DNA from: a virus | Lineage: Duplodnaviria > Caudoviricetes | Length of the DNA stretch: 59,678 bases | IMG/VR virus record: IMGVR_UViG_3300037182_000030 | Span: 1 to 59,678 of that record | Direction: 5' to 3' (one strand) | Shown: in pieces, positions 7,969 to 59,678 of the stretch | How positions within the stretch are numbered: position 1 is the stretch's first letter | How the letters are laid out: each line of letters opens with the position of its first letter | Made by a program: the position numbers and the translations under genes | Notes under the pieces: generated by a model | Told to the model about the DNA's origin: nothing | Seen by the model: the letters and a program-made list of their open reading frames with translations, nothing else | The model's database searches: none

Positions 7969-8523
7969 ATGAAGAAGAAACGCAAGCCGCCAGTCAAGCT
8001 TCCCCCGCCTGCACCGAAAGGAAACCAGCGGGCCAAAGGCAACAAGGGCGGCGGCAGAAAAAGCCTTTTCCGAAAGCACATGATCGGGCCGGCAAAGATG
8101 CTTGCAAAACTTGGAGCGACAAACGCAGAAATGGCAGAAGCATTTGGGGTTACATCAAACGCAGTCAGGGGATGGCGTGAAAACAATCCTGTGTTTTCTG
8201 CCACCATAAAAGACGGAAAGGACGAATCAGATAACAGGGTTGTGGAATCTCTTTTCAAACGCGCCACCGGCTACAGTCATCCAGACGTTCACATTTCAAC
8301 TTACGAGGGGAAACCAATCGTCACCAAAATCACGAAGCACTATCCACCGGACGCGACAAGCTGCATTTTCTGGTTGAAGAATCGCCGTTCAAACGAATGG
8401 AAGGACCGGAGCGAAAACATTCTCCAAAATCCAGACGGGACGGCGCTTGAGCCAATCACTGTCAAAGTCATCGGCGGCACAATCCCAAAAGCGAAAACTT
8501 CCAATGAAGAAAGCCAAGCCTGA
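7969..8523 (+). CDS. terS: Terminase small subunit
   Basis: APKGNQRA.GN.GGGR, HTH (GAT..E.A..FGV), V.ESLFKRATGY, HYPPD..S.IFWLKNR; lies upstream of TerL. Confidence 0.85.
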   Translation: MKKKRKPPVKLPPPAPKGNQRAKGNKGGGRKSLFRKHMIGPAKMLAKLGATNAEMAEAFGVTSNAVRGWRENNPVFSATIKDGKDESDNRVVESLFKRATGYSHPDVHISTYEGKPIVTKITKHYPPDATSCIFWLKNRRSNEWKDRSENILQNPDGTALEPITVKVIGGTIPKAKTSNEESQA

Positions 8524-45746: not shown

Positions 45747-45953
45747 GTGTCTAACAAAGAGCCATCAGAGATTGAGAAGGTGGAAGCCAGAATTAACGAA
45801 TGGCGCATGGAATATGACAGAACCAAGACCACGCACGAAATCAGCCGGAGTTACAACCTTGTCAATAAGATGAACGATTTGAACAAAAAGATCAGCCTTG
45901 CGAACAAATGGCTTTCCGAGCAGCGCGCCCCAATGGAGGCGGCAAGGCAATAA
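45747..45953 (+). CDS. Hypothetical coiled-coil protein
   Basis: Contiguous ORF. Confidence 0.5.
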   Translation: MSNKEPSEIEKVEARINEWRMEYDRTKTTHEISRSYNLVNKMNDLNKKISLANKWLSEQRAPMEAARQ

Positions 45954-45954
45954 T

Positions 45955-46734
45955 ATGTCAGCAATCGCCACAGCCTGGGCTTGGAAAACGCCGACGAAAA
46001 GTCCGACGATGAAACTGATTTTGCTCGTGTTGGCTGAATTCGCCACGGAGAAAAACAAGACGGGTGTGAGCATGGAGGGATTGCAGCAATTAAGCGGAAT
46101 GACGCAAGCGCAGGTGGAGTATGCGATTCAAGGGTTAGTGGACGGATTGGCAATTGAAGACACTGGCGCGAGAATCGGGGATCAAAAGAACATCCGCGTA
46201 TTCCAATTGATGCTGCTCAAACCGCTGACCAAAATAAAACGCCGGACGAAGCAAACGAGCCTGGCATTTACAGAGGCCGAAGAAATTTACAAATTGCACC
46301 CCAGACCAGTCGCAAGGCCGCGCTCGCTGAATCTGATAAACAAGGCAATCGCCGCACACGGGTTTGAATTCATCAAAGAGAAAACCGCTCTGTTTGCAAA
46401 GGCGTGGCAGGGCAGAACAGATATTGAGCATTGTGCCCATAGTTCCACTTGGTTTCAGCAGGAACGCTATTTGGACGACATCAAGACGATTGGAGGCTCG
46501 TTTGCGGCAAGAGCAACAGCCGGACCAAAATTCAATGAAGTGCGCGAATATGTTTTGCAGCACGTCACACGAGATGATCGGGGTTGGAGTTCATCGTTCT
46601 ATGGGTATTGGAATGACCCAAAGCGGAACTGGAAAGACAAAACAGGCCAGTCAATAGACTGGAAAGAGCGGCTTTCAAAACAACTTGCAGCATGGCGGGC
46701 ATCCGAACAAAAAACAAATTTGACACCCGCATAA
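45955..46734 (+). CDS. Phage replication initiator (N-terminal HTH)
   Basis: MS..A..WAW......KLILLVLA.FA; IY..HPR.V; H.STWF.QERY.D. Confidence 0.75.
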   Translation: MSAIATAWAWKTPTKSPTMKLILLVLAEFATEKNKTGVSMEGLQQLSGMTQAQVEYAIQGLVDGLAIEDTGARIGDQKNIRVFQLMLLKPLTKIKRRTKQTSLAFTEAEEIYKLHPRPVARPRSLNLINKAIAAHGFEFIKEKTALFAKAWQGRTDIEHCAHSSTWFQQERYLDDIKTIGGSFAARATAGPKFNEVREYVLQHVTRDDRGWSSSFYGYWNDPKRNWKDKTGQSIDWKERLSKQLAAWRASEQKTNLTPA

Positions 46735-47998: not shown

Positions 47999-48137
47999 CA
48001 ATCAGCAAAAAGGCATTATGCTCTTGTTGTGTCACAGTTCAATCAATCTGCCGCTTGCTCCGAACGCTTCACCGCGTCTATGCGCTTTCCTGCGCACTGT
48101 GACACACGGAGCGAGCGGCGTCTCAATAGGTGTCACA
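47995..48137 (+). promoter_or_regulatory. Promoter plus structured leader
   Basis: TTGACA-16-TATGCT; nested inverted repeats. Confidence 0.6.
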
Positions 48138-48773
48138 GTGAACTTAAAACCACATCCCCAAATAAAAAACGAAACAGGCAAGAAATACGGGAGATTGTTT
48201 GTGGAGTCTTTAGGGGTTATCAAAAAACGGAAGGCTTACTGGAAGTGTGTTTGCGATTGCGGAAAACATTGCCAGATTTGTGGAACGTCGCTTAGAAATG
48301 GAATGACGCAATCGTGCGGTTGCTGGCGTCAAGACACCGCAGCATTGCGAGCCTACAAACATGGAAGCGCAATAACAGAATCAACAGAATACAGATCTTG
48401 GAAACATGCAAAAAACAGGTGCCAAAACAGTAAAAACAAAGCCTTCAAATACTACGGAGCTAGGGGAATAAAGATTTGCAATCGGTGGAATCATTCATTT
48501 GAAAATTTCTTAAAAGACATGGGCAAAAAGCCGACAGGGAAAAGCCTTGACCGTAAAAACAACAACGGCAATTACACGCCAAAGAACTGCCGGTGGGCAA
48601 CACCATACGAGCAGTCAAACAACAGCCGACATTGCAGAATCATAAAATACGGCGGTATCAGTAAAACGCTTAAAGGATGGGCAGATTGGAGCGGCATAAA
48701 TATCAGAACCTTACATTCAAGGCTGAAAAACAAAACAATTGGAATGGCCTTAAATACGCCAGTCCGAAAATAA
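48138..48773 (+). CDS. HNH homing endonuclease
   Basis: G.KYGRL.V....W.C.CDCG...L..G.T.SCGC...YGARGI.IC.RW..F.NFL.DMG..P...LDR.NNNGNY.P.NCRWAT. Confidence 0.9.
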   Translation: MNLKPHPQIKNETGKKYGRLFVESLGVIKKRKAYWKCVCDCGKHCQICGTSLRNGMTQSCGCWRQDTAALRAYKHGSAITESTEYRSWKHAKNRCQNSKNKAFKYYGARGIKICNRWNHSFENFLKDMGKKPTGKSLDRKNNNGNYTPKNCRWATPYEQSNNSRHCRIIKYGGISKTLKGWADWSGINIRTLHSRLKNKTIGMALNTPVRK

Positions 48774-50062: not shown

Positions 50063-50631
50063 TTCAGCGCAAAACACTATTCAGCGATGACAGAAAATTC
50101 CGCTACACGCTTTGGCGGGAATTTTATCCGATTTTTGCGACCGATGGCGCCGCCGGGAAAGTTCCAATCGAAGGGAACAAGTCGCATCATTTTGTGATGT
50201 TCATCGGCCTGAATCCGTCCACCGCAACAGAAACAGAAGACGACCCCACAAACCGACGTTGCATCCGGTTTGCGAAGGAGTGGGGATTTGGAGCTTACTG
50301 CATGACGAACCTTTTTGCATTTTGCACGGCCTATCCGAAAGTTTTGACCGAAGCTGGACATCCAATCGGCGAGCCTGGGAATTACATCACAGTCGGAAAC
50401 GCAGGTTTTGATAACCGGAATGACTATTGGCTTTATCTGACTGGCCGCGAAGCTGGTTTAATCGTCGCCGCATGGGGATCGTTTCCGCAAGCTGTAGAGC
50501 GAGCAAAAACAATCCGCAAAATGTTCGCCGGGAAACTTTACTGCCTCGGACAAACCGCCAATGGAAGCCCAAAGCATCCTCTTTATTTGCAAGCCGACAC
50601 GAAGCCAATCCTTTACGATGAACCAAAATGA
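50059..50631 (+). CDS. DUF1643-family protein
   Basis: RY.LWR; FIGLNPSTA....DDPT.RRC..FA..WG; NLFA; VAAWG; G.P.HPLY. Confidence 0.88.
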   Translation: MIQRKTLFSDDRKFRYTLWREFYPIFATDGAAGKVPIEGNKSHHFVMFIGLNPSTATETEDDPTNRRCIRFAKEWGFGAYCMTNLFAFCTAYPKVLTEAGHPIGEPGNYITVGNAGFDNRNDYWLYLTGREAGLIVAAWGSFPQAVERAKTIRKMFAGKLYCLGQTANGSPKHPLYLQADTKPILYDEPK

Positions 50632-51146
50632 TTGCCCGCCGAAAAACACCAAGACCGCTCGCCTTATGGACTCAACTACCAGGGGCGCGTTTGACGCCTT
50701 CGCCAAAGGGACGCCAGCGAGAAAAGAATGGCGCAAGTGGATTCCGTTCCTTCACCCGGTCGAAATACTTATCGAAATTGCCAAGGCAAAAGCCGATCAA
50801 AAAAGTGTCCACTAAAAAACAAAAGTCAGACCGGCTTTACATGGCCATCGCAAAAGAGCATCGCCGGCAGCCGGGCAACGATTATTGCCGGGTTAAATTC
50901 GCGCTGACAAGACGAGTAATTCCGGCAACTCACACGCACCACATTCGAGGCCGACTGAAAACTCTGAAATTCGACACGCGATTCTTTTGCCACACGACAT
51001 TTGAAAATAATCTTTGGCCTCACAGGAATCCAAAAAAGGCGCAAGCGTTGGGATTGATCGCTGGGCCGGGAGAGTGGAACGTCGCGCCAAATGACGCGGA
51101 AACTGAACGGATCAAAAGCTGGATGATTGAAAAAGGAATCTGGTAA
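50628..51146 (+). CDS. HNH-like protein; its stop forms the distal boundary of the array
   Basis: C......AT..HH.RGR; ends TGG TAA|C. Confidence 0.55.
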   Translation: MIARRKTPRPLALWTQLPGARLTPSPKGRQREKNGASGFRSFTRSKYLSKLPRQKPIKKVSTKKQKSDRLYMAIAKEHRRQPGNDYCRVKFALTRRVIPATHTHHIRGRLKTLKFDTRFFCHTTFENNLWPHRNPKKAQALGLIAGPGEWNVAPNDAETERIKSWMIEKGIW

Positions 51147-51238
51147 CGCATAGCTCTGCCATGAACACCGCGCCAACGATGCCCGATTGCAATGAAACCG
51201 CCAACGCGGTGGTCATTGGCAGCAGCGCATGGTTAGAC
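51141..51238 (-). repeat. attC: attC #16 (distal)
   Basis: TAAC-GCTCTGCCATGA / TCATtGGCAGcAGC-GTTAGAC. Confidence 0.85.
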
Positions 51239-51988
51239 GCCATTGTGTGTGATGACAATGTGAAAGTCCTCTCCGGCCTGCCTGATGCGTGTATAGACCT
51301 GACGGTAACAAGCCCACCGTATGACGACATCTTCGCGTATGGTGGTCACTCGTGGGACTTCAACGCGCTCGCGGCGCAACTCGCCCGCGTGACAAAGCCG
51401 GGCGGCGTGGTGGTGTGGATAATCGGCGACCAGACAAAGAACGGCGCGGAAACGCTGACGAGCTTCCGGCAAGCTCTCGCCTTCGACGCGCTCGGACTGC
51501 GGATGCACGACACGATGATCTACGAGAAATCCGGCGTGGCATACCCTGACAGCAACCGATACCTGCAAGTCGTGGAATGGATGTTCGTCATGTCGAAGGG
51601 AAAACCGAAAACCGCGAACCTGCTGCGTGACCGGCCAAATAAATACGTCGGCACGATGGGCGGCAACGGACGCGGCGGACTGTGCAAGCGAAATGAGAAC
51701 GGCATCCGCTTCAACATCTGGCGATACCCGACTGGCCGCGACAACTCGACAAAAGACCGCGTGGCATACGAGCATCCGTGCGTGATGCCGGAAGCTCTCG
51801 CCCGCGACCATATCCTGACGTGGAGCAAGGAAGGTGAAACCGTGCTGGACTGCTTCGCTGGCAGCGGCACGACTCTGAAAATGGCACGGGAAACCAACCG
51901 CCGATACCTCGGCATCGAAGTGAATCAAACCTATGTGGACATCATCAACAAACGCCTCGAAAACCATGCGCTCCCGCTTGGCGTCTAA
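51161..51988 (+). CDS. Cassette cargo: DNA N4/N6 methyltransferase
   Basis: VTSPPY; HPCVMP; VLDCFAGSGTT; start codon inside attC. Confidence 0.92.
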   Translation: MNTAPTMPDCNETANAVVIGSSAWLDAIVCDDNVKVLSGLPDACIDLTVTSPPYDDIFAYGGHSWDFNALAAQLARVTKPGGVVVWIIGDQTKNGAETLTSFRQALAFDALGLRMHDTMIYEKSGVAYPDSNRYLQVVEWMFVMSKGKPKTANLLRDRPNKYVGTMGGNGRGGLCKRNENGIRFNIWRYPTGRDNSTKDRVAYEHPCVMPEALARDHILTWSKEGETVLDCFAGSGTTLKMARETNRRYLGIEVNQTYVDIINKRLENHALPLGV

Positions 51989-52072
51989 CATTGAGTCCAG
52001 CCATGCCGGGGCTGTGACTCCCAAATGAAACTGAAGCGGCCAACCGGCATTGGCTGCGACGATTTGTTGGGC
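51983..52072 (-). repeat. attC: attC #15
   Basis: GTCTAAC-GTCCAGCCATGCCGG / CCGGCATtGGCTGcGAC-GTTGGGC. Confidence 0.88.
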
Positions 52073-52103
52073 AGGCCGGTCTGAAAATAAGTGAAAATAA
52101 ATC

Positions 52104-52132
52104 TTGCTATCCGAACCGCTTGGGTTTAATCT
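52104..52132 (+). promoter_or_regulatory. Cassette-internal promoter
   Basis: TTGCTA-17-TAATCT, ATG 7 nt downstream. Confidence 0.55.
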
Positions 52133-52139
52133 CTCTTCA

Positions 52140-52388
52140 ATGAAAACATACTATGCCACCGCAAAAGACTGCAAAGAATTTGATACCGCAATCGCGAGCC
52201 TCCGGCCACTCGCAATCTCAATAGCGGAGACGCGCCGGTTGCTCGTAATGGCTGGGGTCGGAACATTCGGCACGGAAAAAGAACGCCAGATGCTTGCGAA
52301 ATTTGAGGATAAAATCACCAAACTCCAAACGAAGCTCTATAAACGCGCTCAAAAGGCTTGGTATCATTCCGCAGGAACCGTCCAATGA
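52140..52388 (+). CDS. Cassette cargo: hypothetical protein
   Basis: MKTYYATAK... Confidence 0.6.
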   Translation: MKTYYATAKDCKEFDTAIASLRPLAISIAETRRLLVMAGVGTFGTEKERQMLAKFEDKITKLQTKLYKRAQKAWYHSAGTVQ

Positions 52389-52528
52389 ATAAGGCCGCTC
52401 AATCTCTCGGACGCCTCGGCGGTCTAGCGAAGTCGAAAGCCAAGACTGCCGCTGCGCGTCGTAACGCAAAACTCGGTGGACGCCCGAAGAAAACCAAACG
52501 CTCGGCCCGGCGGCCTAACGCCGCGTGA
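52385..52528 (+). CDS. Cassette cargo: small basic GGRP peptide
   Basis: MNKAAQSLGRLGGLAKSKAKTAAARRNAKLGGRPKK...; not in the ORF track. Confidence 0.7.
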   Translation: MNKAAQSLGRLGGLAKSKAKTAAARRNAKLGGRPKKTKRSARRPNAA

Positions 52529-52620
52529 TGAGCCACGCGAGAATTTTATGAAACCAAAAACACTGAAAAAGACCAATCGCAAACCCGTAACCCGCGTTGG
52601 CTCCGGCACGCTTGTTAGCC
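52513..52620 (-). repeat. attC: attC #14
   Basis: GCCTAAC-GAGCCACGCG / CGCGTtGGCTC-GTTAGCC. Confidence 0.8.
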
Positions 52621-52856
52621 GACGGGTGAGGCTTGAATTTATGGTAGTGCCAGAACTACTCGCTACCAAAGCGTATGTCCCGACCCCGGTGCGCTGCAAA
52701 ATAATAGACCCGGAAGCAATCTTTCTGACGGGCATCTTGGGTGACAGTGGCCGCAAACTGGTAAAAGCTGGAATTGAGTTCTACTTTACGAAGCGTCTTG
52801 CTAACAAGTTAATCTCAAAGCGAATTGCCGTGAAGTCGGCTAACGAAAAAAGCTGA
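52548..52856 (+). CDS. Cassette cargo: hypothetical protein
   Basis: Start inside attC #14, stop inside attC #13. Confidence 0.6.
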   Translation: MKPKTLKKTNRKPVTRVGSGTLVSRRVRLEFMVVPELLATKAYVPTPVRCKIIDPEAIFLTGILGDSGRKLVKAGIEFYFTKRLANKLISKRIAVKSANEKS

Positions 52857-52963
52857 GCCACGGCGACGGGAAACAATCTCCGACTGCAAATGAAACAACC
52901 AAATAACCAAATAGCGCCGAAACTGACGGGGCAGTCGCCGTTGGCTCCGGCGCGTTGTTATGG
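52838..52963 (-). repeat. attC: attC #13
   Basis: GGCTAAC-GCTGAGCCACGGCGAC / GTCGCCGTtGGCTCcGGC-GTTATGG. Confidence 0.88.
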
Positions 52964-53499
52964 CTCAAATTATGAATAAACTGACTCAAAAAATTCGGTC
53001 TGCTTACGAGCAAATTAAGAAGCGGCCATTCGACCGCCTTCCGCTTCACGGCGTTGGGGCGGAAATTGGCGTCTATCGCGGCATCCACGCCCGTAAATTT
53101 CTCAACCGCATTGCCGTCCAAAAGCTCTACGTCGTTGATCCGTGGATAAACTACACGCAAATGTTTGATCTGCCGCAAGCGGAGCGCATCTGTCACTTTC
53201 TGCTGGACGGGTTTGAGGATAGGTGTGTTTTCTGCAAAGCCACGGCGCAGACGGCCAATCTCCCGCAACTGGACTTCGCCTACATAGACGCGTTGCACAC
53301 TGATGAGGGCGTAACTGCCGACATGGAAACAATCTGGCCGCTGATAAAGCCCGGCGGAATCATGGGCGGTCACGACTTTGACACGAACTGGCCGGGAGTG
53401 GTGCAAGGCGTCATCCGATTCGTGGCGAAAAACAACCTGACGCTTAACGTCCAGTCGCCGGATTGGTGGGTGGTCAAAAGCCATAACGACCCGAACTGA
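52960..53499 (+). CDS. Cassette cargo: class I SAM-dependent methyltransferase (Methyltransf_24-like)
   Basis: GAEIGVYRG, VDPW, DFAYIDA.H, IKPGG.M.GHDF. Confidence 0.85.
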   Translation: MAQIMNKLTQKIRSAYEQIKKRPFDRLPLHGVGAEIGVYRGIHARKFLNRIAVQKLYVVDPWINYTQMFDLPQAERICHFLLDGFEDRCVFCKATAQTANLPQLDFAYIDALHTDEGVTADMETIWPLIKPGGIMGGHDFDTNWPGVVQGVIRFVAKNNLTLNVQSPDWWVVKSHNDPN

Positions 53500-53591
53500 G
53501 ACACCGCCGATGTGCGGTGTCCGAACTCTAAAAAATCTTATGGCAAAAAAGAAAGCGTCAACGGCGGTTGTCTCCAGTGAGATGGTTCGGC
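53481..53591 (-). repeat. attC: attC #12
   Basis: CCATAAC-ACTGAGACACCGCCG / CGGCGGTtGTCTCcAGT-GTTCGGC. Confidence 0.88.
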
Positions 53592-53908
53592 AGCCGGATA
53601 ACCTGTATCTCCAATGGCACGGGGATGCTGAACCGACCGACTCACCAATCAGCGTGATGGATGTCACATGGTCACGAGATAAAATCTGGCCGTATGACAT
53701 CGAATATGCCCGCGTCCCAAACGATGCCTTCATCGCCCCACTGATGAGGTGGCTGGTGCAACGGGAAGGAAAATGCGCGGCGACAACCATGAGCATCCTT
53801 AAACGCAAGCTCGACCGCTACATCGAAACCGCCAATCACGAAGAATGGCGCAAGCTGCCGAACGTCCTGCGTGAGCCAAGCGGGACTGACGGCTCACGAT
53901 TGAAATGA
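53540..53908 (+). CDS. Cassette cargo: hypothetical protein
   Basis: P...YLQW......VTW..D.I...DIEY.R phage-type motif. Confidence 0.65.
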   Translation: MAKKKASTAVVSSEMVRQPDNLYLQWHGDAEPTDSPISVMDVTWSRDKIWPYDIEYARVPNDAFIAPLMRWLVQREGKCAATTMSILKRKLDRYIETANHEEWRKLPNVLREPSGTDGSRLK

Positions 53909-53946
53909 CAGCGACAACCCGCTTTGGCTCCACGCAGTTGTTGGGC
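53857..53946 (-). repeat. attC: attC #11
   Basis: GCCGAAC-CGTGAGCCAAGCGGG / CCCGCTTtGGCTCcACG-GTTGGGC. Confidence 0.88.
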
Positions 53947-54402
53947 AGGCCGGCTGAAAATATACAAATGAAAATACATCTGATAATCGAAATCGAGGAC
54001 GACGGAAAGACGCGCCGCGCCACCGTGCAGCGCGTGGCGAAAGTCGCGGAACTCAACGGCGACCGTGAACTGCTCATCGCGCCAGCCGCCGCGCTCGAAA
54101 TCATCAAGAAACAGAAGCGTGCAAAAATCGCGGATGTCGCGCCCGCGCCAGTGCCGCCGCTACCTGAACCGGACGCGCCGAAAATCGAGCGCAAAGGCTC
54201 CGGCCCGCAATTCGATCCCGGCTTTCTGAAAATCATCGAGGATGCGCCCGAACCGTTCACGCGCCGGAGTCTCGCGGTGAGTAGCGGCTTGAAAGTCGAG
54301 GACGTGACACAACGGCTAATCCGGCTGCACAAGAAAGGCTGGATACACCAGCCCGCCCGCGAAATGTGGGTGAGAACCAAAACCTTTGGAGAAAAGCCGT
54401 GA
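53905..54402 (+). CDS. Cassette cargo: protein with C-terminal winged helix
   Basis: PFT...LA...GL....V...L.RL.KKGWI. Confidence 0.6.
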   Translation: MTATTRFGSTQLLGRPAENIQMKIHLIIEIEDDGKTRRATVQRVAKVAELNGDRELLIAPAAALEIIKKQKRAKIADVAPAPVPPLPEPDAPKIERKGSGPQFDPGFLKIIEDAPEPFTRRSLAVSSGLKVEDVTQRLIRLHKKGWIHQPAREMWVRTKTFGEKP

Positions 54403-54680
54403 GCAACTTCGACAAGCAATATGCGCGGCAAGGTGGCCGGTGCTTCTGGTGCCAACATCTTGTGCCAGTCGCGGCCATGACCCGCGACCATATCGAGCCA
54501 AAAACCCACGGCGGCGCAAACGACTGGTCAAACATCGTGCTGGCCTGCGCCAAGTGCAACGAAGCCAAGTCCGCGCTCCATGTCGGCAGCATCCGGTTCG
54601 ACAAGAGGCTGCGGAAAGTAATGCGCGGAGAAATCTATCGCTTCATCCGCCGGGAAACATTCAAACACAACGCGACATGA
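54399..54680 (+). CDS. Cassette cargo: HNH endonuclease
   Basis: Q.GRCFWC......T.DHI.P...GG.N...NIVLAC..CN..K. Confidence 0.85.
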   Translation: MSNFDKQYARQGGRCFWCQHLVPVAAMTRDHIEPKTHGGANDWSNIVLACAKCNEAKSALHVGSIRFDKRLRKVMRGEIYRFIRRETFKHNAT

Positions 54681-54687
54681 ACCGGCT

Positions 54688-54816
54688 GCCCAACGACTGA
54701 CTTCAGACACCGCCGACAATATGCAAACCAACTCTGAACCAACTGCGATGCCCGCCGAAGCCAACAACTCCCGAACCGCCAGCGATGAGGCGGTTGTCTG
54801 CAAGGAATTGTTGGGC
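54688..54816 (-). repeat. attC: attC #10
   Basis: GCCCAAC-CTTCAGACACCGCC / GGCGGTtGTCTGcAAG-GTTGGGC. Confidence 0.88.
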
Positions 54817-55077
54817 TGCGGTGGTAAGACTGCCATCAAACCATACAAGGAACTAAAACCGTGTCCTTTCTGTTTCGGTGCGGCCTGCCTCCATCGTCGG
54901 CGGTCGGTGAACAATGCCGTAGGCCACGCGAAAACCGGGTGGGTGTATCACGTCCACTGCACCGACTGCGGCGCTCATTTTCACGAGGACGGAAACGAAG
55001 GAAGTGCTGTCTCGCGCTGGAACTCACGAGAGCAGCCCAACGGTCGGGATCAGAGGCCCGGCGACCAAAACGCATGA
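54721..55077 (+). CDS. Cassette cargo: Lar-family restriction alleviation-like protein
   Basis: ELKPCPFC.G....V.C..CGA......A...WN.R. Confidence 0.75.
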   Translation: MQTNSEPTAMPAEANNSRTASDEAVVCKELLGCGGKTAIKPYKELKPCPFCFGAACLHRRRSVNNAVGHAKTGWVYHVHCTDCGAHFHEDGNEGSAVSRWNSREQPNGRDQRPGDQNA

Positions 55078-55125
55078 ATACGAATGAGACGCAATCGCCG
55101 GGTTCTCTGCATCCCGTGGTTCGGC
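55035..55125 (-). repeat. attC: attC #9
   Basis: GCCCAAC-GATCAGAGGCCCGGCGA / TCGCCGGGTtCTCTGcATC-GTTCGGC. Confidence 0.88.
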
Positions 55126-55418
55126 ATCCCTCGTTCGATGCTGATGGATACCCAACCGAGGAAACCGAACTGGCAATCAAGGCGTGGGACTTTCGAGACG
55201 CGCCCGGCTGGCTGGCATACATCCGCGAGGCGTGGAATCACCACTATGGTAGAATGTGGGAAGACAACGGAACGATCAAGATGGCGACTGGCGGATGGAG
55301 TGGCAACGAATCAATCACGCACTCCATGCGAGAGAACTACATCCTATGGTCGCTGCTTTGGGAATCGTCGCATCGGGGCGGCCTCGAAGTGCTCAGGATG
55401 CCGAACATTTCAAGCTGA
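55074..55418 (+). CDS. Cassette cargo: conserved phage hypothetical
   Basis: D.DGYPTEE....I..W...TGGWSGNE.I......W...W.SS.RGG. Confidence 0.7.
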   Translation: MNTNETQSPGSLHPVVRHPSFDADGYPTEETELAIKAWDFRDAPGWLAYIREAWNHHYGRMWEDNGTIKMATGGWSGNESITHSMRENYILWSLLWESSHRGGLEVLRMPNISS

Positions 55419-55509
55419 GCCACAGGCGCGAACTGAATAAACCGTGAATCTGCAAACCGACATCCAAACGACAGCAGCCCCGCCTGTTGGCTCCGGCGCT
55501 GTGTTAGGC
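55400..55509 (-). repeat. attC: attC #8
   Basis: GCCGAAC-GCTGAGCCACAGGCG / CGCCTGTtGGCTCcGGC-GTTAGGC. Confidence 0.88.
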
Positions 55510-55998
55510 GGCAAGTGTCCGGTGTGTGGCGGGCCGAACCCCAAGCGGCATGGGTCTTTTGAGAAAACTTGTTCTTTAAGTTGCGGCCATAAATTGAGAT
55601 TCCAAACCGACCCCAAAGTAAAAAAGCTTCTGCTAAAATACAGATATGTCTGCCTCGGATGGCACGGAAAAGGAAAAGGCGCGAGGGATAATCCCGACCA
55701 CGCAAACGCCAAAGCCATCCGAGTTCGTGATCCGCTTGGTGTGGTGCATGAAATCAAAAACATAACGTCTTGGTGCCGAAAAAATGAACAACTATTCAAG
55801 CCATACGATAACCCGGAGGCAAAGCTTCCGCTCTGGCGACGCGCACAAGTAGGTCTGACAAGTATTGCTTGCGGAGACAAGTGCTCGTGGCATGGCTGGA
55901 CTGCTGTTTGCGTTTTCGACATAGAAGCTGACCCACTGGCAAGGCGCGTGGCTTTGCCGCCTAACGTGGCGCTAAAACACGGCGGCGATCACCAATGA
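55444..55998 (+). CDS. Cassette cargo: Zn-ribbon plus putative DNA-binding domain protein
   Basis: CPVCG...TCS..C; DP.G....I.N...WCR.N...GW. Confidence 0.6.
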   Translation: MNLQTDIQTTAAPPVGSGAVLGGKCPVCGGPNPKRHGSFEKTCSLSCGHKLRFQTDPKVKKLLLKYRYVCLGWHGKGKGARDNPDHANAKAIRVRDPLGVVHEIKNITSWCRKNEQLFKPYDNPEAKLPLWRRAQVGLTSIACGDKCSWHGWTAVCVFDIEADPLARRVALPPNVALKHGGDHQ

Positions 55999-56066
55999 CT
56001 TTCGACTGCAAATCGAATCTGGAAACTGCGGGGACTCCCGCCGTTGTTTTCAGCAACTGGTTAGGG
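55959..56066 (-). repeat. attC: attC #7
   Basis: GCCTAAC-GCTAAAACACGGCGG / CCGCCGTtGTTTTcAGC-GTTAGGG. Confidence 0.88.
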
Positions 56067-56077
56067 AGCGTCAAACT

Positions 56078-56353
56078 ATGAGCTGGTCACTAAACCTGAT
56101 AGGAAAAAAAGAGGATGTCCAAGCCTGCGTGAAAGCGCAAATCGTGGACACAAAATACGCGCCTGAAATCGGCATGGCAATCATTGCTGAAATCTCGGCG
56201 ATACCAGGGCCAACTGGTGTGCCTGATGGACACTGGAGCGCAACGCACGTCATTGTGCGAGGCAGCGGCCACACTGGCGGCGGCGTGAACGAACTGAAAA
56301 TCGAACCGTTCACGGAATGCAAAACACCTGTGGTAGCACCGCCTGTAACCTGA
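56078..56353 (+). CDS. Cassette cargo: hypothetical protein
   Basis: MSWSLNLIGKK...; coupled to attC-encoded peptide 55995-56081. Confidence 0.65.
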   Translation: MSWSLNLIGKKEDVQACVKAQIVDTKYAPEIGMAIIAEISAIPGPTGVPDGHWSATHVIVRGSGHTGGGVNELKIEPFTECKTPVVAPPVT

Positions 56354-56387
56354 ACCGACGGGGAGCTTGAGCGTCGAAACTCAAGCT

Positions 56388-56497
56388 CCCTAACGATGAA
56401 AGCTGAGCCACCGCTGACTATGGACACACAACAACCAACGACTCCTGCGGCAACCCGCGATGACCAACAGCGGTTGGCTCCGGCGGGTTTGTTAGGC
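56388..56497 (-). repeat. attC: attC #6
   Basis: CCCTAAC-GCTGAGCCACCGCTG / CAGCGGTtGGCTCcGGC-GTTAGGC. Confidence 0.88.
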
Positions 56498-56713
56498 CAC
56501 GTCCGAAAACATGGACTCCAAATAGAATGGTGCCGAGACATCCCGGAAGGCGCGCGAAAACTGGCGGTGAACAGAACTCGTGAAATGCTGATCCACTACG
56601 GGCGCAACATCACCAGCCTGAACATCGAAACCCTAGTGCTGTCTTGCTACCTGCAAGGCATCAATGACTGCTTTGAATACCATGAACATAAATCTAAAAC
56701 TGTGGGCAATTAA
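56420..56713 (+). CDS. Cassette cargo: hypothetical protein
   Basis: Start inside attC #6; L..SCYLQG..D. Confidence 0.6.
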   Translation: MDTQQPTTPAATRDDQQRLAPAGLLGHVRKHGLQIEWCRDIPEGARKLAVNRTREMLIHYGRNITSLNIETLVLSCYLQGINDCFEYHEHKSKTVGN

Positions 56714-56813
56714 AATGATCTTCGTGTGGCGCTGGCGTTGCGGATACTGGGACTGGGACGCATTCCGCGCCGCTTGGAACGTCAAGTGGCCTAACGGCCC
56801 GGATCAGCGATGA
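56682..56813 (+). CDS. Cassette cargo: 43-aa Trp-rich peptide
   Basis: MNINLKLWAIKMIFVWRWRCGYWDWDAFRAAWNVKWPNGPDQR; TGA overlaps ATG 56810. Confidence 0.45.
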   Translation: MNINLKLWAIKMIFVWRWRCGYWDWDAFRAAWNVKWPNGPDQR

Positions 56814-56882
56814 GCGCCACCCAAGACATTCAAATTGAAACCGACGTGCGTGGCGCTCATTCGCTGCATCCGGTGGTTGGGG
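56789..56882 (-). repeat. attC: attC #5
   Basis: GCCTAAC-GATCAGCGATGAGCGCCAC / GTGGCGCTCATtCGCTGcATC-GTTGGGG. Confidence 0.9.
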
Positions 56883-57679
56883 CGCATTTCGAGGACTCAC
56901 AAACTAGAATCATAAACGCCGACTGCCTGAACACGCTCGAAGAAATGGAAGATGGAAGCTGCCATGCTGTAATCACTGACCCGCCGTTCTCGTCTGGTGC
57001 GCGAACCGACGCCGGAAAGAATATGCGCGGCGGGATGCAACGCGGCGCGAAGTGGCAAGAGAACTGGTTCAGTCACGACAACCTCGCCACTCACGGCTTC
57101 AACTATCTGATGCGCCTGGTGGCTGTGGAACTCTACCGTGTGACAACGCCAACCGCGACCGCCCACTTCTTCATAGACTGGCGGATGTATCCGAACCTCT
57201 ACGCCGTGGTGGAGTCGGCGGGATGGATCGCAAAGAATCTCGTGGTGTGGGACAAGAAACACTTCGGGATGGGCGGCAACTACCGCAACCAGCACGAGCT
57301 AATCCTCTACTGCGAAAAGACGGCTGGCGCTGACTTCCGGCAAAAGAACCTCGGCAACGTGATAAGCAGCAAGCGGGCTGAAATGCTGCACCATCCGACA
57401 GAGAAGCCGACCGACATCCTCGGTCTGATGATTCGGGCGGTGACTGACGAGGGGCAAACCGTGCTCGACCCATTCATGGGCAGCGGGTCAACGCTTCGCG
57501 CCGCCAAAGACAACAATCGGAAATCAATCGGCATCGAGATATGCCGAGAATACTGCGAAGTGGCCGCAGCACGGATGGCTCAAACCGTCCTGCCACTGGA
57601 CGCGCCCGCAATGCGCCCCAACGCAGAGTTCAGGAACGCCGCATCTGGCGTTCCCGGACTCGATGGAGGCGTCCAATAG
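56810..57679 (+). CDS. Cassette cargo: DNA N4/N6 methyltransferase
   Basis: ITDPPF; HPTEKP; VLDPFMGSGST. Confidence 0.92.
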   Translation: MSATQDIQIETDVRGAHSLHPVVGAHFEDSQTRIINADCLNTLEEMEDGSCHAVITDPPFSSGARTDAGKNMRGGMQRGAKWQENWFSHDNLATHGFNYLMRLVAVELYRVTTPTATAHFFIDWRMYPNLYAVVESAGWIAKNLVVWDKKHFGMGGNYRNQHELILYCEKTAGADFRQKNLGNVISSKRAEMLHHPTEKPTDILGLMIRAVTDEGQTVLDPFMGSGSTLRAAKDNNRKSIGIEICREYCEVAAARMAQTVLPLDAPAMRPNAEFRNAASGVPGLDGGVQ

Positions 57680-57705
57680 GCGTTTCCTGCAACGATTTGT
57701 TGGGC
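57616..57705 (-). repeat. attC: attC #4
   Basis: CCCCAAC-GTTCAGGAACGCC / GGCGTTtCCTGcAAC-GTTGGGC. Confidence 0.88.
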
Positions 57706-57736
57706 AGGCCGGTCTGAAAATAAATGAAAATAGTTC

Positions 57737-57765
57737 TTGCAACCAAAGCGGCTTGGGTTTATTGT
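57737..57765 (+). promoter_or_regulatory. Cassette-internal promoter
   Basis: TTGCAA-17-TATTGT, ATG 6 nt downstream. Confidence 0.55.
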
Positions 57766-57771
57766 GTGGGT

Positions 57772-57978
57772 ATGAAAACGAACGAAATCAAATCGGTGTC
57801 AGCGGCGCACGGCAAAATGAACATCGTTCACGCGGCGGGCGCGACGGTGGAAGGCTGCACGGCGGCATACTACGCGCTCTGCGGCGACACGCGGGCAATC
57901 CGGCGGTCAATGCGCGGATTTCTTGAAGTGTATGTCCCGGTGAACTGCCCGTCATGCCTTGCCAAGCTCGCAAAATGA
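57772..57978 (+). CDS. Cassette cargo: small Zn-binding protein
   Basis: VH......ALCG......VNCPSC. Confidence 0.6.
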   Translation: MKTNEIKSVSAAHGKMNIVHAAGATVEGCTAAYYALCGDTRAIRRSMRGFLEVYVPVNCPSCLAKLAK

Positions 57979-58289
57979 AAACTGAATGGAAATGGCTACT
58001 CGACTGGATAGCACAAAACGGCAGCGCCGACTGCTTGAACACGCCGCTCGCGCTCGACGCCTGCGAGCGGTTCGGATGGCGCTGCATCAGAACTGGCCTG
58101 CATACGGTGTCAACGCCTCGCGTCGGACGGGAACTGGCGAAGATGGCAAGGGCTGGCTACCTCGAAAAGAGCCGCGCCGGAATCTCCGGACTCGGCTACG
58201 GGTGGCCGAAATGGGTGTGGACATACAGCCTGACAAGTATGGCTGCCCAAATTGCAACGGAGACGGTTGCGAACTCTGCCGCTAAATGA
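57975..58289 (+). CDS. Cassette cargo: winged-helix-like protein
   Basis: GR.L..M...GYL...R.G......GWPKWV..Y.L. Confidence 0.6.
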   Translation: MKTEWKWLLDWIAQNGSADCLNTPLALDACERFGWRCIRTGLHTVSTPRVGRELAKMARAGYLEKSRAGISGLGYGWPKWVWTYSLTSMAAQIATETVANSAAK

Positions 58290-58465
58290 ACATCACAAAA
58301 TATCTGTCTGAAATCGGGCGCAAAGGCGGTAAAGCCAAGAGCCGCGCCAAACTCGCCGCTGCGCGTGCAAATGGGAAACTTGGTGGACGCCCGAAGAAAC
58401 CTAAACGCGCCGCCCGTCTGCCCAACACTAAAGTGAGCAGCGTGATCGTGAGCAACCGTGAATAA
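58286..58465 (+). CDS. Cassette cargo: small basic GGRP peptide
   Basis: MNITKYLSEIGRKGGKAKSRAKLAAARANGKLGGRPKK...; paralog of 52385-52528. Confidence 0.7.
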   Translation: MNITKYLSEIGRKGGKAKSRAKLAAARANGKLGGRPKKPKRAARLPNTKVSSVIVSNRE

Positions 58466-58541
58466 CTCGACAACCATTCTAACCACTGAAACCGTGCCAA
58501 CTGGCGGGAGCAATCACGTCTGCTCCACTGCCTTGTTAGAG
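58420..58541 (-). repeat. attC: attC #3
   Basis: GCCCAAC-AGTGAGCAGCGTGAT / ATCACGtCTGCTCcACT-GTTAGAG. Confidence 0.88.
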
Positions 58542-59276
58542 CACAGGATCGTGGCGCTCTCTGGTGGAAAAGACTCAACCGCTCTCGCTCTCCGGCTCGC
58601 GGAAGTAGAACCGCAAGCGTATCAATTCTGCATCACGCCGACAGGCCGCGAACTGCCGGAAATGCTCGACCACTGGAAAAAGCTGGAATGTCTGCTTGGC
58701 GCTCCGCTGGTGCGAATCCCAGGCCCGTCGCTGCTCGACCTCATCATCAAATACAAGACGCTGCCAAACTTCCGGCTGCGCTACTGCACGCGGGAAGTGA
58801 AAATCGAGCCATTCATCAAATACGCGGAGAGCCTCGCGCCTGCAATCTGCTACGTCGGCATCCGTGCCGATGAAGCCGATGACCGCGAAGGAACGAACTG
58901 GAATGGCATCGAAGGCGTGAAACAAGACCTGCCGCTGGTGCGCTGGGGATGGGGCGTGAACCGCGTAAAAGAATATCTGCGCGAACGCGGCGTGACGATA
59001 CCGGAACGGACGGACTGCGACTGCTGCTATCACCAGCAACTCGGCGAATGGTGGCGGCTGTGGCGCGACCACATAGACCGCTGGATGGAAATCGAAGCTC
59101 TCGAAATCTGGACTGGTCACACGCTCCGCAGTGAACAGCGCGACTCGTGGCCGGCGAGCCTGAAAGAACTCCGCGCAAAATTTGAAGCTGGCTACATCCC
59201 GAAAGGGGCAGCGCAAATGAAAATCCCGCTCGACGTAGCCGAGCGGAAAACAATGTGCGCTTGGTGCGCTCGATAA
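58458..59276 (+). CDS. Cassette cargo: PAPS-reductase-family (PP-loop) protein
   Basis: VALSGGKDSTAL; TG.E.PE; R.CT...KI.P; VGIRADE..R; PL..WG; R..C..C. Confidence 0.85.
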   Translation: MNNSTTILTTETVPTGGSNHVCSTALLEHRIVALSGGKDSTALALRLAEVEPQAYQFCITPTGRELPEMLDHWKKLECLLGAPLVRIPGPSLLDLIIKYKTLPNFRLRYCTREVKIEPFIKYAESLAPAICYVGIRADEADDREGTNWNGIEGVKQDLPLVRWGWGVNRVKEYLRERGVTIPERTDCDCCYHQQLGEWWRLWRDHIDRWMEIEALEIWTGHTLRSEQRDSWPASLKELRAKFEAGYIPKGAAQMKIPLDVAERKTMCAWCAR

Positions 59277-59277
59277 T

Positions 59278-59547
59278 ATGCCATACGAAACCCTACACCC
59301 CGGAAAGAAATGTCCCGAATGCGGCGGCAGGGGAAAAATCTACCGTCACGTTCCGAAATACGCGATAGCCATGCCCGGCGTGGCTGACGACTGGACATAC
59401 GAAGATCAAGAATGCTGGCGCTGTCATGGTGACGGCATCGCGCGTTCGCTGGACGCACGGCTGTGCTCTAACGTAGAAGTCAGCGATGGCGCGTCGCTGA
59501 CCAACCGAAAAACAAACGCAGCGTCCTCGCGCCATTCGCTGCACTGA
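59278..59547 (+). CDS. Cassette cargo: DnaJ-type zinc-finger peptide
   Basis: CPECGGRG...CWRCHGDG; reads through attC #2. Confidence 0.6.
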   Translation: MPYETLHPGKKCPECGGRGKIYRHVPKYAIAMPGVADDWTYEDQECWRCHGDGIARSLDARLCSNVEVSDGASLTNRKTNAASSRHSLH

Positions 59548-59557
59548 CGGGTTAGGA
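59466..59557 (-). repeat. attC: attC #2
   Basis: CTCTAAC-AGTCAGCGATGGCGCG / CGCGCCATtCGCTGcACT-GTTAGGA. Confidence 0.9.
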
Positions 59558-59678
59558 CTTTTATGAGAACAACAATAATGATAGCTGCAATCCTTTTGGT
59601 CGGCGCTCATGGAGTGCCGGAAAGCAAAGTAAATATCGGAACTGGAATAGCCAGATTCGGACTGTTGTGGTCACTGGC

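Follow-up and report, generated by a model that had tools for sequence, protein, structure and literature searches.

The closest described counterparts of the locus reported here are the sedentary chromosomal integrons, typified by the Vibrio cholerae superintegron with its integrase VchIntIA and its VCR sites. In these integrons, many similar attC sites form a long array, the integrase (IntI) has an extra domain, and an attI site lies beside the 5´ end of intI. Their attC sites fold from the bottom strand, which is the intI-sense strand, into hairpins whose R and L boxes are accompanied by extrahelical bases, an unpaired spacer and a variable loop. A different arrangement is found in the 'inverted-integrase' integrons of the Treponema type, in which the array follows the 3´ end of a flipped intI.

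Integron parts are also present within phage genomes. In the available part of Qi et al. 2023 (PMC9892861), complete phage integrons are host-derived, of the Vibrio type or class 1, and are carried by temperate phages or prophages. The virulent phages of its list have attC clusters without an integrase (three sites in TJE1), and several phage CALINs carry DNA methyltransferase cargo.

The window analysed here is the whole 59,678-nt stretch of the IMG/VR record IMGVR_UViG_3300037182_000030. It shares all the chromosomal-integron features listed above and is best read as a functional-looking integron of a distinct integron lineage, resident in a tailed-phage genome (probability roughly 0.82). 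The original prediction of a complete integron (intI, attI and at least 16 attC cassettes) in a phage backbone is thus supported. Its features are given below; bit scores of the attC sites refer to R1, a covariance model trained on eight of the 16 window sites.

459–1412, + strand: intI, integron-type tyrosine recombinase of 317 aa (best family TIGR02249; PF00589, PF13495)
416–458, + strand: attI, hairpin-less GTCCTAAC, predicted crossover AA/C (422/423), then 36 nt to the intI ATG
51145–51234, + strand: attC H1, distal array end, 63 bits
51987–52068, + strand: attC H2, 93.2 bits
52517–52616, + strand: attC H3, 26.2 bits (E 2.2e-4), outside the R1 training set
52842–52959, + strand: attC H4, 29.3 bits, outside the training set
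53485–53587, + strand: attC H5, 27.8 bits, outside the training set
53861–53942, + strand: attC H6, 74.5 bits
54692–54812, + strand: attC H7, 39.2 bits, outside the training set
55039–55121, + strand: attC H8, 77.8 bits
55404–55505, + strand: attC H9, 28.9 bits, outside the training set
55963–56062, + strand: attC H10, 46.7 bits, outside the training set
56392–56493, + strand: attC H11, 40.2 bits, outside the training set
56793–56878, + strand: attC H12, 68.5 bits
57620–57701, + strand: attC H13, 83.2 bits
58424–58537, + strand: attC H14, 29.7 bits, outside the training set
59470–59553, + strand: attC H15, 86.6 bits, followed by a 50-aa membrane-protein cassette copy running off the contig end
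177–260, + strand: attC H16, 88 bits
51161–51988, + strand: N6/N4 DNA methyltransferase (PF01555, 128.1 bits), cassette 51147–51988
52960–53499, + strand: SAM-dependent methyltransferase (Methyltransf_24; PF13578, 51.6 bits)
54721–55077, + strand: Lar-family restriction alleviation protein (PF14354, 46.1 bits)
56810–57679, + strand: second N6/N4 DNA methyltransferase (PF01555, 117.3 bits)
58458–59276, + strand: PAPS-reductase-like protein (PF01507, 31.5 bits; phrog_424, 1.1e-35)
1–178, + strand: 3´ part of a 50-aa-protein cassette copy (ORF 26–178), ending TAA/C
270–422, + strand: attI-proximal cargo, 50-aa predicted membrane protein without a family match (cassette 179–422)

The 16 AAC...GTT hairpins claimed in the original prediction were confirmed on the + strand at the positions above. 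They measure 82–121 nt from AAC to GTT and span 51145–59553 plus 177–260. R1 recovers all of them, on the + strand only, and has no further match at E ≤ 1 anywhere in the window; the eight sites outside its training set are recovered at E values from 3.6e-10 to 2.2e-4. At strict thresholds, nine hairpin candidates are found in the 59.7-kb window, all inside the array. R1 also matches three genuine class 1 attC sites (phage P1 record MH445380; E 4.6e-6 to 4e-5), while Rfam gave no match. The sites display the anatomy of attC: an imperfect hairpin with an R box (AAC/GTT), an L box and a variable loop, a spacer that stays unpaired, and extrahelical bases on a single arm. Of the 21 pairs in the consensus fold, 14 show compensatory changes. 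Among 42 distinct sites, in an alignment fitted to the model, 92.9% of cells are paired (66.7% when shuffled) and 212 cells are double changes (69 when shuffled).

The flanks of the hairpins carry the footprint of cassettes. The six nucleotides 3´ of the GTT of one hairpin are the reverse complement of the six nucleotides 5´ of the AAC of the next in 15 of 16 cases, and the ends of these cassettes would form a perfect R box (6/6) when circularised, as had been claimed; the sole exception is the H2-to-H3 pair (4/6). The corresponding means are 3.06/6 within hairpins and 2.84/6 in 240 other pairings, 2% of which are perfect. The leader after H2 also recurs after H6 and H13. The array is made of real attC cassettes, not of chance palindromes.

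The integrase has TIGR02249 as its best family (229.9 bits, E 4.6e-68), under the 265-bit cut-off of that model, and scores 152.1 bits against a cut-off of 435 with NF011946; both curated NCBIfam integron-integrase cut-offs are therefore missed. The protein also has no match to PF22823, a family that 11 of 51 listed non-clade proteins carry. Its best solved structure is VchIntIA (2a3v, E 1.9e-36), in an alignment that runs through the IntI-specific insert. The insert, whose presence was originally proposed, is shared in the alignment with VchIntIA and IntI1, whereas XerC/XerD lack it. The catalytic residues R135, K160, H266, R269, H292 and Y301 are invariant across the clade. Rooted on XerC/XerD, the tree places all 53 IntI-like rows in a single group (SH-aLRT 100), within which the 22-row clade of the window integrase is monophyletic (SH-aLRT 100). 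This clade comprises about 69 metagenomic proteins, and the window integrase is 29–38% identical to the listed integron integrases. Judged by its sequence, the integrase is a member of a separate, deep IntI clade that had not been described before.

The core site predicted beside the integrase is likewise present: a hairpin-less AAGTCCTAAC ends at 423 (AAC at 421–423), 36 nt 5´ of the integrase ATG (459). Seven other clade loci (L008/L009, L013, L011, L012, L002 and L007) have chained hairpins directly 5´ of intI on the same strand. In all eight loci, variable cassette sequence stops at xxxxxxAAC and a conserved stretch then runs to the intI start; in the seven that include the preceding hairpin, the six bases before this AAC complement the preceding GTT flank. 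The conserved stretch is of two sequence types, tracking two integrase subclades, and the site has the features expected of an attI: it adjoins intI, lacks a hairpin and is lineage-specific. L008/L009 have an IntI 85% identical to that of the window, and two of the three L008 cassettes are N6/N4 methyltransferases on the intI strand. The backbone of L008, the closest long relative, gave no identification as phage or cell, and the clade may not be phage-only.

The molecule that carries the integron has the hallmarks of a tailed phage, with packaging and replication genes together: a large terminase (phrog_2, 3.1e-32), a portal protein (phrog_113, 1e-28), an endonuclease VII and an O-like replication initiator, all backbone genes lying on one strand. 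It is conceivable that a temperate or transducing phage acquired a piece of a host chromosomal integron, as in Vibrio anguillarum phages, which would make the integron bacterial rather than phage-native. Such capture is reported for two Vibrio phages, besides a class 1 mosaic on P1, in the part of Qi et al. 2023 (PMC9892861) considered here. Furthermore, besides the integrase no recombinase was found in the record, and the lifestyle may be temperate. Against this origin, a pattern-based scan of 185,579 species genomes (one each) yielded no clade member, only one weak partial match, and no listed contig carrying the clade exceeds 77 kb. An unrelated complete phage shows the same layout: L002, a virus record of 52,184 bp whose direct terminal repeat measures 127 nt and whose CheckV completeness is 100%. 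Moreover, the array is packed gap-free between phage genes, has the same strand and skew as they do (AT skew 0.18–0.21, the same as the + coding backbone) and overlaps their stop and start codons, and its cargo orientation suits phage transcription rather than a Pc promoter. Acquisition from a host is thus unlikely, and a phage-native integron, as originally proposed, is favoured. The arguments first offered for it fared unequally. The AAC of H1 (51145–51147) does overlap the TAA stop (51144–51146) of the ORF at 50628–51146, and the stop codon of intI overlaps the start codon that follows it, in the ATGA at 1409–1412. The gene 3´ of intI, described as muralytic, has no Pfam or PHROG match, which leaves that claim unsupported, and phage-type cargo was identified for five of the 20 cargo ORFs, the remaining 15 having no family assignment.

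Polarity was assessed with the bottom-strand rule for attC (Nivina et al.). With the + strand folded, every one of the 16 hairpins shows an uninterrupted AAC arm facing an arm with two single-base bulges; the bulged T and C are, besides AAC and GTT, the only invariant columns among the sites. Since the bulged bases lie opposite the 5´-AAC on the + strand in 16 of 16 sites, the + strand is the attC bottom strand. In a class 1 integron used for calibration, the intI1-sense strand carries the 3´-arm bulges and the cargo is antisense to intI1. The predicted attC/attI/intI geometry of the window is therefore classical, the intI-sense strand being the attC bottom strand, and it is the cargo that is reversed: every cargo gene that could be identified lies on the attC bottom strand and runs in the same direction as intI and the phage genes. 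Because this recombinogenic bottom strand is the coding strand, a point that the earlier reader missed, each cassette consists of a hairpin and the ORF downstream of it. The TAA stop of the methyltransferase at 51161–51988 ends exactly at AA/C, and the longest Lar-family ORF begins in the loop of H7. Three long antisense ORFs have no Pfam match.

Under the classical alternative, a cassette would be an ORF with the hairpin downstream of it, recombination would occur at G/TT on the + strand, and the AAC at 421–423 would not be attI. The flank footprint is symmetric and compatible with either reading, and folding energies do not discriminate between the strands, the + strand being the more stable in only nine of 16 sites. 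However, the bulges follow the bottom-strand rule throughout, R1 matches the true class 1 attC sites only when their bottom strand is read, the conserved/variable junction lies at the AAC beside intI in every clade locus, and the array begins with a hairpin whereas the last ORF copy (270–422) has none downstream. Contigs from a permafrost run of another study bear on both sides of the question. A 1,114-nt contig holds 55486–55965 with five differences, between unlike sequence on both sides, and an 864-nt contig holds 53918–54694. In the former, the match sets in close to the GTT side of the hairpin upstream, as the classical polarity allows; yet both matches end at the C of the next hairpin's AAC, so that the downstream hairpin is excluded. 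Since the 99% identity of the cargo in the 1,114-nt contig begins within the 3´ arm of the upstream hairpin, the 5´ arm resembling H4, the hairpin loop was not carried intact with the cargo. Classical polarity of the cassettes is accordingly unlikely, slightly more so than host capture, and cassettes comprising a hairpin and its downstream ORF are preferred. The occurrence of cassettes in other contexts hints at mobility. Among the contigs, which would not reveal rare excised circles or deletions, no product of recombination was seen.

Both contig ends fall in copies of one tandemly repeated 50-aa cassette: segment 1–178 is identical to 245–422 at 166 of 178 nt, and the last 141 nt match the first 141 nt with two mismatches (139/141 identical). 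The original prediction ran the array through a circular junction; with an end overlap lying in a repeat, a record classed as linear in IMG/VR and a CheckV completeness of 69%, closure is unconfirmed. Ends in a repeat could also suggest that a bacterial integron array was misjoined to a phage contig during assembly, and Logan contigs do break inside the array (at 52061–52088, 57694–57721 and 59567–59653). Nevertheless, the backbone–H1 and attI–intI–backbone junctions lie within single long contigs in two runs, which are possibly the source data and thus amount to a second assembler rather than independent data. The 51,758-nt contig of run X1 starts at window position 331 by offset, spans attI, intI, the backbone and H1–H2, and has 50900–52088 at its far end; the 40,645-nt contig of X2 includes 50900–52088. 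Depth is equal on backbone and array in both runs (25.2, 24.8 and 25.6 in X1; 11.3, 9.94 and 10.1 in X2). A chimeric join is thus very improbable. Least credible of all is the proposal that the hairpins, which are intergenic or overlap gene starts, are terminators or REP-like repeats beside an ordinary lysogeny integrase that stays under the curated integron cut-off, since chained flanks, invariant bulges, covariation, cross-matches to genuine attC and the IntI insert would all be unexpected.

For the phage-resident integron, the following mechanism can be proposed. The integrase, whose recombination activity we infer, would most likely bind the folded + strand of each attC hairpin and cleave AAC between A and C. 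Recombination between two attC sites would excise a circular cassette (a hairpin with its downstream ORF), and recombination between attI and attC would insert it at AA/C 422/423, directly 5´ of intI. The cargo is co-directional with intI and every phage gene, so the array is probably expressed by the unidirectional transcription of the phage, or from leaders inside cassettes, and not by way of a Pc promoter, with transcription probably reading through from the array into intI. A look for sigma-70-like promoters on the array's + strand found none, which leaves this route an inference; neither was a Pc promoter found reading into sense cassettes, a direction to which the cargo is antisense. The identifiable cargo would modify DNA or relieve restriction, which suggests a counter-defence role, the likely benefit being a rapid turnover of counter-defence and accessory genes.

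In comparison with the sedentary chromosomal integrons, the window integron sits in a phage genome and has a separate deep integrase clade. All its identifiable cargo is on the bottom strand, and attI sites of the window type lie only about 24–36 nt from the intI start, with no Pc found. The second bulged base is G20´´ in the chromosomal systems, where it is contacted by W157 of VchIntIA (PMC2095811), and C in the window sites; in the structure-match alignment, the residue counted opposite W157 is Q157. Like the Treponema-type integrons, the window has intI and cassette ORFs in the same direction, but its array is 5´ of intI and the ORFs, rather than intI, are flipped relative to attC. Virus Rctr41k is a possible viral example of the flipped-intI type. 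The combination of classical attC polarity with back-to-front cargo is new. Compared with the phage integrons in the available part of Qi et al. 2023 (PMC9892861), with which it shares integron parts within a phage genome, the window has a complete platform with 16 or more cassettes, an IntI lineage of its own and cargo in reversed orientation. An uncultivated peat phage would thus possess a complete gene-capture system of at least 16 swappable cassettes, several of them with anti-restriction genes.

The window is best read as carrying a genuine phage-resident integron (probability about 0.8), with a presumed activity and biological role. Its integrase gene, intI (459-1412, + strand), encodes a 317-aa recombinase with the Pfam families PF00589 and PF13495. 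The best NCBIfam family was TIGR02249 'integron integrase' (229.9 bits, E 4.6e-68), below the 265-bit cut-off; XerC and XerD scored 76 and 61 bits. With a score under the curated cut-off, standard pipelines may label the protein 'integrase' and overlook the element. The best solved structure was VchIntIA (2a3v, E 1.9e-36), aligned without gaps through the IntI-specific segment. The IntI-specific insertion claimed in the original prediction is indeed present: when the window protein was aligned by MAFFT with XerC, XerD, IntI1 and two named integron integrases, its segment LP..L..KYP...W + S.DP..G..R.H fell opposite gaps in XerC and XerD. An IntI tree, also envisaged there, groups the protein with its IntI-like counterparts: in a quick maximum-likelihood analysis of 55 rows rooted on XerC/XerD, the 53 IntI-like rows form one group (SH-aLRT 100). 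The 22 rows of its own branch (hereafter the clade) are monophyletic (SH-aLRT 100), their placement among other IntI lineages being unsettled in this tree, which carries a long-branch warning. R135, K160, H266, R269, H292 and Y301 are invariant across the clade.

The 16 AAC...GTT hairpins originally predicted as attC sites (H1-H16 in array order) were all recovered on the + strand, both by folding and by a covariance model (R1). They run from 51145 to the contig end plus 177-260, with the AAC start and GTT end 82-121 nt apart. A strict arm-complementarity scan gave nine distinct candidates in the window, all inside the array, and a looser threshold placed 22 of 31 candidate pairs within 50-59.7 kb. 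When every site was folded with DNA parameters, the 5' (AAC) arm on the + strand was continuous and the 3' arm had two one-base bulges. Besides AAC/GTT, the only invariant columns of the 16-site alignment are one T and one C, seven columns apart, and these are the two bulged bases. R1 was built from eight short window sites, for which the RNAalifold consensus had 21 pairs, 14 of them with compensatory changes. It gave 43 matches at E <= 1 in 263,826 bases, as follows.

Matches of R1 in the window and in the loci compared with it
Window: 16, all + strand, none elsewhere in the window
L002: 8
L013: 4
L011: 3
L012: 2
L008: 2
L007 and L048: 1 each, an identical site
L006: 2, - strand
L046: 1, E 0.31
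L019 (phage P1 record MH445380 with a class 1 integron, used as calibration): 3 genuine class 1 attC sites, strand opposite the aadA genes, E 4.6e-6, 1.7e-5 and 4e-5

The eight window sites outside the training set were found at E 3.6e-10 to 2.2e-4. R1 missed L002 9294-9390 and L008 7950-8055, both found by the arm scan, and the dfr attC of L019. Over 42 distinct matched sites, 92.9% of cells were paired, against 66.7% when shuffled and 25-41% with partners slid, and double-change cells numbered 212 against 69; the pairing figures favour R1, as the alignment was fitted to the model. Rfam gave no family over the whole window at gathering thresholds. The element agrees with the structural definition of an integron, except for the curated integrase cut-off and the Pc/cargo-orientation rule. 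Many hairpin loops hold a start codon, often in ATGAAAC context (e.g. 51191, 52549, 54721, 58458); in such cases translation of the conserved 3' arm gives the cargo protein its N-terminus, and on mRNA the hairpin would present the start codon in its loop.

The excerpts of PMC2727003 describe T12'' and G20'' as conserved extrahelical bases. In contrast to the second of these, G20'', the window attC sites have a C. VchIntIA W157, one of two residues contacting G20'' according to the excerpts of PMC2095811, corresponds to Q157 in the window protein (manual count on the structure-match alignment), while W219 corresponds to W218. Speculatively, the C bulge may accompany the Q157 change.

The complementary flanks predicted across cassettes were borne out: in 15 of 16 cassettes the 6 nt that follow GTT and the 6 nt that precede the next AAC are perfectly reverse-complementary, the exception being H2 to H3 (4/6). 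The terminal AAC (421-423) likewise has a flank complementary to H16. Perfect inverted repeats reach 6-10 nt past the triplets. The same comparison within one hairpin averaged 3.06/6, and 240 other pairings averaged 2.84/6, with 2% perfect. Joined cassette ends form a perfect R box, and the R box of an array hairpin is a hybrid of two cassettes. As judged from sequence, this footprint appears to be the trace of site-specific exchange that always uses one position within the triplet.

The last cargo ORF is followed by the hairpin-less AAGTCCTAAC (414-423), with the intI ATG 36 nt further on. It had been proposed as the core site beside the integrase, which agrees with a comparison of the window and seven relatives over the 150 nt ahead of intI: in 8/8 loci conservation sets in beyond xxxxxxAAC, the sequence before that point being unrelated.

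Sequence following the AAC
L002, L007, L011, L013: TCTTATTAAGCATCA...; L012 with a variant
L008, L010: TCTTATTCACC...AAAGGATGTATAAC
Window: ATGTATTCTACGCCGCCAAAGGCTGTATAAC

The six bases before this AAC are complementary to the GTT flank of the preceding hairpin in all 7 loci containing that hairpin. Together, the conserved/variable junction and the flank match place the crossover at AAC and define a short, lineage-specific attI. The distance from AAC to the intI ATG is about 24-36 nt in the eight loci, which leaves almost no space for an intI promoter of its own; we infer that intI is read through from the array.

The phage character of the rest of the record, 59,678 bp, classed as linear in IMG/VR and with a CheckV completeness of 69%, is indicated by the following genes. 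All long ORFs are on the + strand.

Backbone genes listed as phage hallmarks
3388-4158, +: endonuclease VII
8447-9928, +: large terminase (phrog_2, 3.1e-32)
13356-15158, +: portal (phrog_113, 1e-28)
45898-46734, +: O-like replication initiator
48018-48773, +: HNH endonuclease

A third DNA methyltransferase is encoded close to the packaging genes and not in the array (6442-7710; phrog_67, 2e-66). A backbone-relative search found terminase relatives in 24 loci and no relative of the ORF upstream of the array. Two of these terminase relatives (88% and 86%) are on 4.4- and 4.8-kb contigs ending before the integron position, and the remaining loci share with the window the terminase alone or a few head genes.

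An assembly chimera, in which the array was wrongly joined to the phage, is improbable in view of the public runs. Two peat runs (X1 and X2, possibly the source data) held 99-100% of the sampled words of the array; 18 other runs held 9-16%, and the small shares in X4 and X6-X20 are not taken as habitat evidence. A 51,758-nt X1 contig ends at 52088 and starts, by offset, at window position 331, so that a single contig joins attI and intI through the complete backbone to H1, the first cassette and H2; a 40,645-nt X2 contig covers 50900-52088. Array depths equal that of the backbone (25.2, 24.8 and 25.6 in X1; 11.3, 9.94 and 10.1 in X2), and array pieces from these runs break only at the repeats 52061-52088, 57694-57721 and 59567-59653. 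The junctions thus lie within long contigs of a second assembly at equal depth, although possibly from the same reads. Several contig joints, with sides of 22-26 letters, skip array parts (e.g. 52618 to 52840, 55509 to 56023); they are read as other cassettes between similar hairpins and not as deletions.

The circular junction of the original prediction is putative. The contig ends overlap by 141 nt with 2 mismatches. At both mismatches the end copy, the start copy and the copy at 270-422 all differ. The attI-proximal cassettes are copies of one 50-aa predicted membrane protein, and an 87-nt piece common to them (59567-59653, 31-117) is at 1.4x phage depth in X1 and 3.6x in X2. The differing copies and raised depth imply at least two copies of this cassette, probably three or more. 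The contrast in depth between X1 and X2 suggests that its copy number differs between populations. The array as a whole comprises at least 16 cassettes.

Cargo also occurs in other contexts. In X3, a permafrost run from another study, 75% of the contigs examined carry on beyond the match as dissimilar sequence. Window positions 55486-55965 occur with 5 differences on a 1,114-nt contig, and 53918-54694 with 62 differences on an 864-nt contig, followed there by 71 unlike letters. Each match ends with the C in the AAC of the hairpin that comes next (55965, 54694), so the samples share cargo in different contexts, with the right-hand limit that the cassette model predicts. The match on the 1,114-nt contig begins in the H9 3' arm, joined to an H4-like 5' arm, and the hairpin upper stem and loop are not conserved with the X3 cargo; exchange between very similar attC arms is one possible, incomplete, account of this left limit. 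Separately, 56174-56466 (the 3' part of cargo ORF 56078-56353 and the 5' half of H11) had a summed depth of 340 in X1, 130 in X2 and 350 in X5, against phage depths of about 25, 10 and 0-8; an abundant other carrier in these peat samples has a close copy of it.

Regarding polarity, Nivina et al. 2016 (PMC5027507, in the excerpted text) place integrase cleavage at the A/C step of the 5'-AAC in the R' box on the bottom strand. They put the extrahelical bases of the wild-type bottom strand on the arm opposite that triplet, and they attribute the sense orientation of cargo relative to Pc to bottom-strand recombination. At 16/16 window sites it is the + strand that combines a 5'-arm AAC with 3'-arm bulges. 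L019 served as calibration: on the intI1-sense strand the attC next to intI1 (4206-4283) carries its bulges in the 3' arm, the dfr cargo runs antisense to that gene, and in the second integron fragment of L019 the aadA cassettes have 5'-arm bulges on the coding strand. By this standard, the attC-intI relation in the window is classical, the intI-sense strand being the bottom strand and attI lying at the 5' end of intI. The cargo, by contrast, probably lies on the attC bottom strand, uniformly reversed relative to classical cassettes. A window cassette would then consist of the C of AAC, the hairpin and the downstream ORF up to the next AA.

Several features fit such hairpin-plus-downstream-ORF cassettes. 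The array opens with a hairpin abutting a backbone gene and closes with an ORF copy that has no hairpin behind it. For four of the five Pfam-supported cargo genes the longest ORF begins within the upstream hairpin, and the fifth begins at the hairpin's GTT. At 51986-51988, 176-178 and 420-422 the TAA of TAA|C is the stop codon of a cargo ORF, and the AT skew of the array (0.18-0.21) is that of the + coding backbone. Three long antisense ORFs had no Pfam match. Two other guides were uninformative: fold energy (+ strand more stable in 9/16 sites) for polarity, and open-frame length (antisense frames equally long) for cargo strand.

Pfam families above curated cut-offs were found for 5 of the 20 cargo ORFs scanned; the other 15 had none.

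Cargo genes with Pfam support
51161-51988, +: N6/N4 DNA methyltransferase
52960-53499, +: Methyltransf_24
54721-55077, +: Lar restriction-alleviation protein
56810-57679, +: N6/N4 DNA methyltransferase
58458-59276, +: PAPS-reductase-like (also phrog_424)

This theme of DNA modification and anti-restriction supports a presumptive counter-defence role for the cargo. Among ten unassigned cargo ORFs searched against PHROGs, the PAPS-reductase-like one alone had a match, and the cassette proteins at 55444-55998 and 56078-56353 had no relative in IMG/VR. An HNH-like motif seen by eye (54386-54700) had no Pfam or PHROG match at the thresholds used and counts as an impression. The small proteins at 52358-52528 and 58286-58465 are mutually similar, the latter alone with a KGG match, below cut-off. 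At either end, cassette 51989-52518 is a paralogue of cassette 57622-58425 (74% and 73% identity). H2, H6 and H13 are each followed by a copy of a 39-nt leader. Directly after these hairpins (52061-52088, 53935-53962, 57694-57721) stands GTTGGGCAGGCCGG(T)CTGAAAATA..., each time preceding a multi-ORF cassette, and assemblies break there. The repeat may be a cassette-borne promoter or leader; a consensus promoter scan did not flag it.

Among 5.8 billion proteins searched, 69 relatives of the integrase were listed at 45-94% identity, beyond which identity falls to at most 38% and source names read integron integrase. In IMG/VR, a single-protein search found none and a profile search found only two clade members plus four distant ones. 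Seven loci share a layout in which intI is immediately preceded, on its own strand, by 1-5 chained hairpins. IntI identity to the window is 85% in L008/L009, 53-54% in L013, L011 and L012, and 51% in L002 and L007. L002 belongs to G001, a 52,184-bp virus record (127-nt direct terminal repeat, CheckV 100%) with a DnaB-like helicase and a weak terminase match, whose backbone shares with the window only part of one large protein. Upstream of its five chained hairpins, L002 has extra R1 sites (1060-1171, 6249-6365, 7053-7148, 7330-7391), some without an intact AAC (e.g. TCTGACG at 7053), which look like decaying distal cassettes. L008 has in common with the window only the integrase and methyltransferase-type cargo (two of its three cassettes are N6/N4 methyltransferases); its backbone gave only a glycosyltransferase, an FkbM methyltransferase, NHL repeats and unknown phrogs by PHROG and Pfam, which yields no phage-or-cell call.

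A pattern scan of one genome each from 185,579 species found no clade member, its sole hit being a 39-residue match in a Gemmatimonadota MAG. The longest contig among those listed for clade proteins is at most 77 kb, against up to 186 kb for named integron integrases. The layout in G001, the lack of a species-genome match and the contig sizes favour, short of proof, a phage-associated lineage. The original claim that the integron is phage-native is accordingly favoured by the clade distribution.

A different arrangement was seen in the partial phage genome Virus Rctr41k (KX853513.1, 4680-10842), from a methane-oxidising/anammox enrichment. Its IntI-like protein, annotated 'xerD', is 32.5% identical to that of the window, and weak R1 matches (E 1.5e-4, 3.3e-3, 0.075) lie downstream on the opposite strand, between genes annotated methyltransferase-like. 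The IMG/VR contig L006 (10001-11744) resembles it. These weak matches would represent a second viral integron geometry, with intI flipped and cargo in the classical sense.

We hold the fuller reading at even odds: a phage-specific integron lineage (own IntI clade, T/C extrahelical code, short attI), its cassette polarity re-wired for array reading within one-way phage transcription, swapping counter-defence genes (DNA methyltransferases, Lar, many unknowns) from a shared environmental cassette pool. If true, a phage-owned integron would put the cassette economy on both sides of the arms race and offer a tractable source of candidate anti-defence genes. Moreover, the uncoupling of cargo from attC polarity in the window would make it a natural test of what determines strand choice and cassette orientation.

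Integrons are regarded as bacterial adaptation devices. A recent preprint (10.1101/2024.07.02.601686, in excerpt) presents chromosomal integrons as reservoirs of anti-phage defence cassettes, and the window element would be the viral mirror of such integrons. According to the excerpts of PMC9892861, integrons in phages have so far been captured host fragments or short attC clusters without an integrase. In that study, Qi et al. (2023) screened 10,705 phage genomes and reported three complete integrons and one In0, all host-type and in temperate phages or prophages, together with 17 CALINs, which had few attC sites and in some cases methyltransferase cargo. In literature searches that covered the article text of PMC9892861, nothing closer was found, and neither an integron lineage native to phages nor cargo reversed throughout an array was described. 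The window element departs from the described cases found in four respects: a separate IntI clade, to date on contigs of virus size; a phage-borne array with 16 or more cassettes; attC sites with a T/C bulge pair; and probably reversed cargo throughout, so that array and intI form one unit co-directional with the phage genes.
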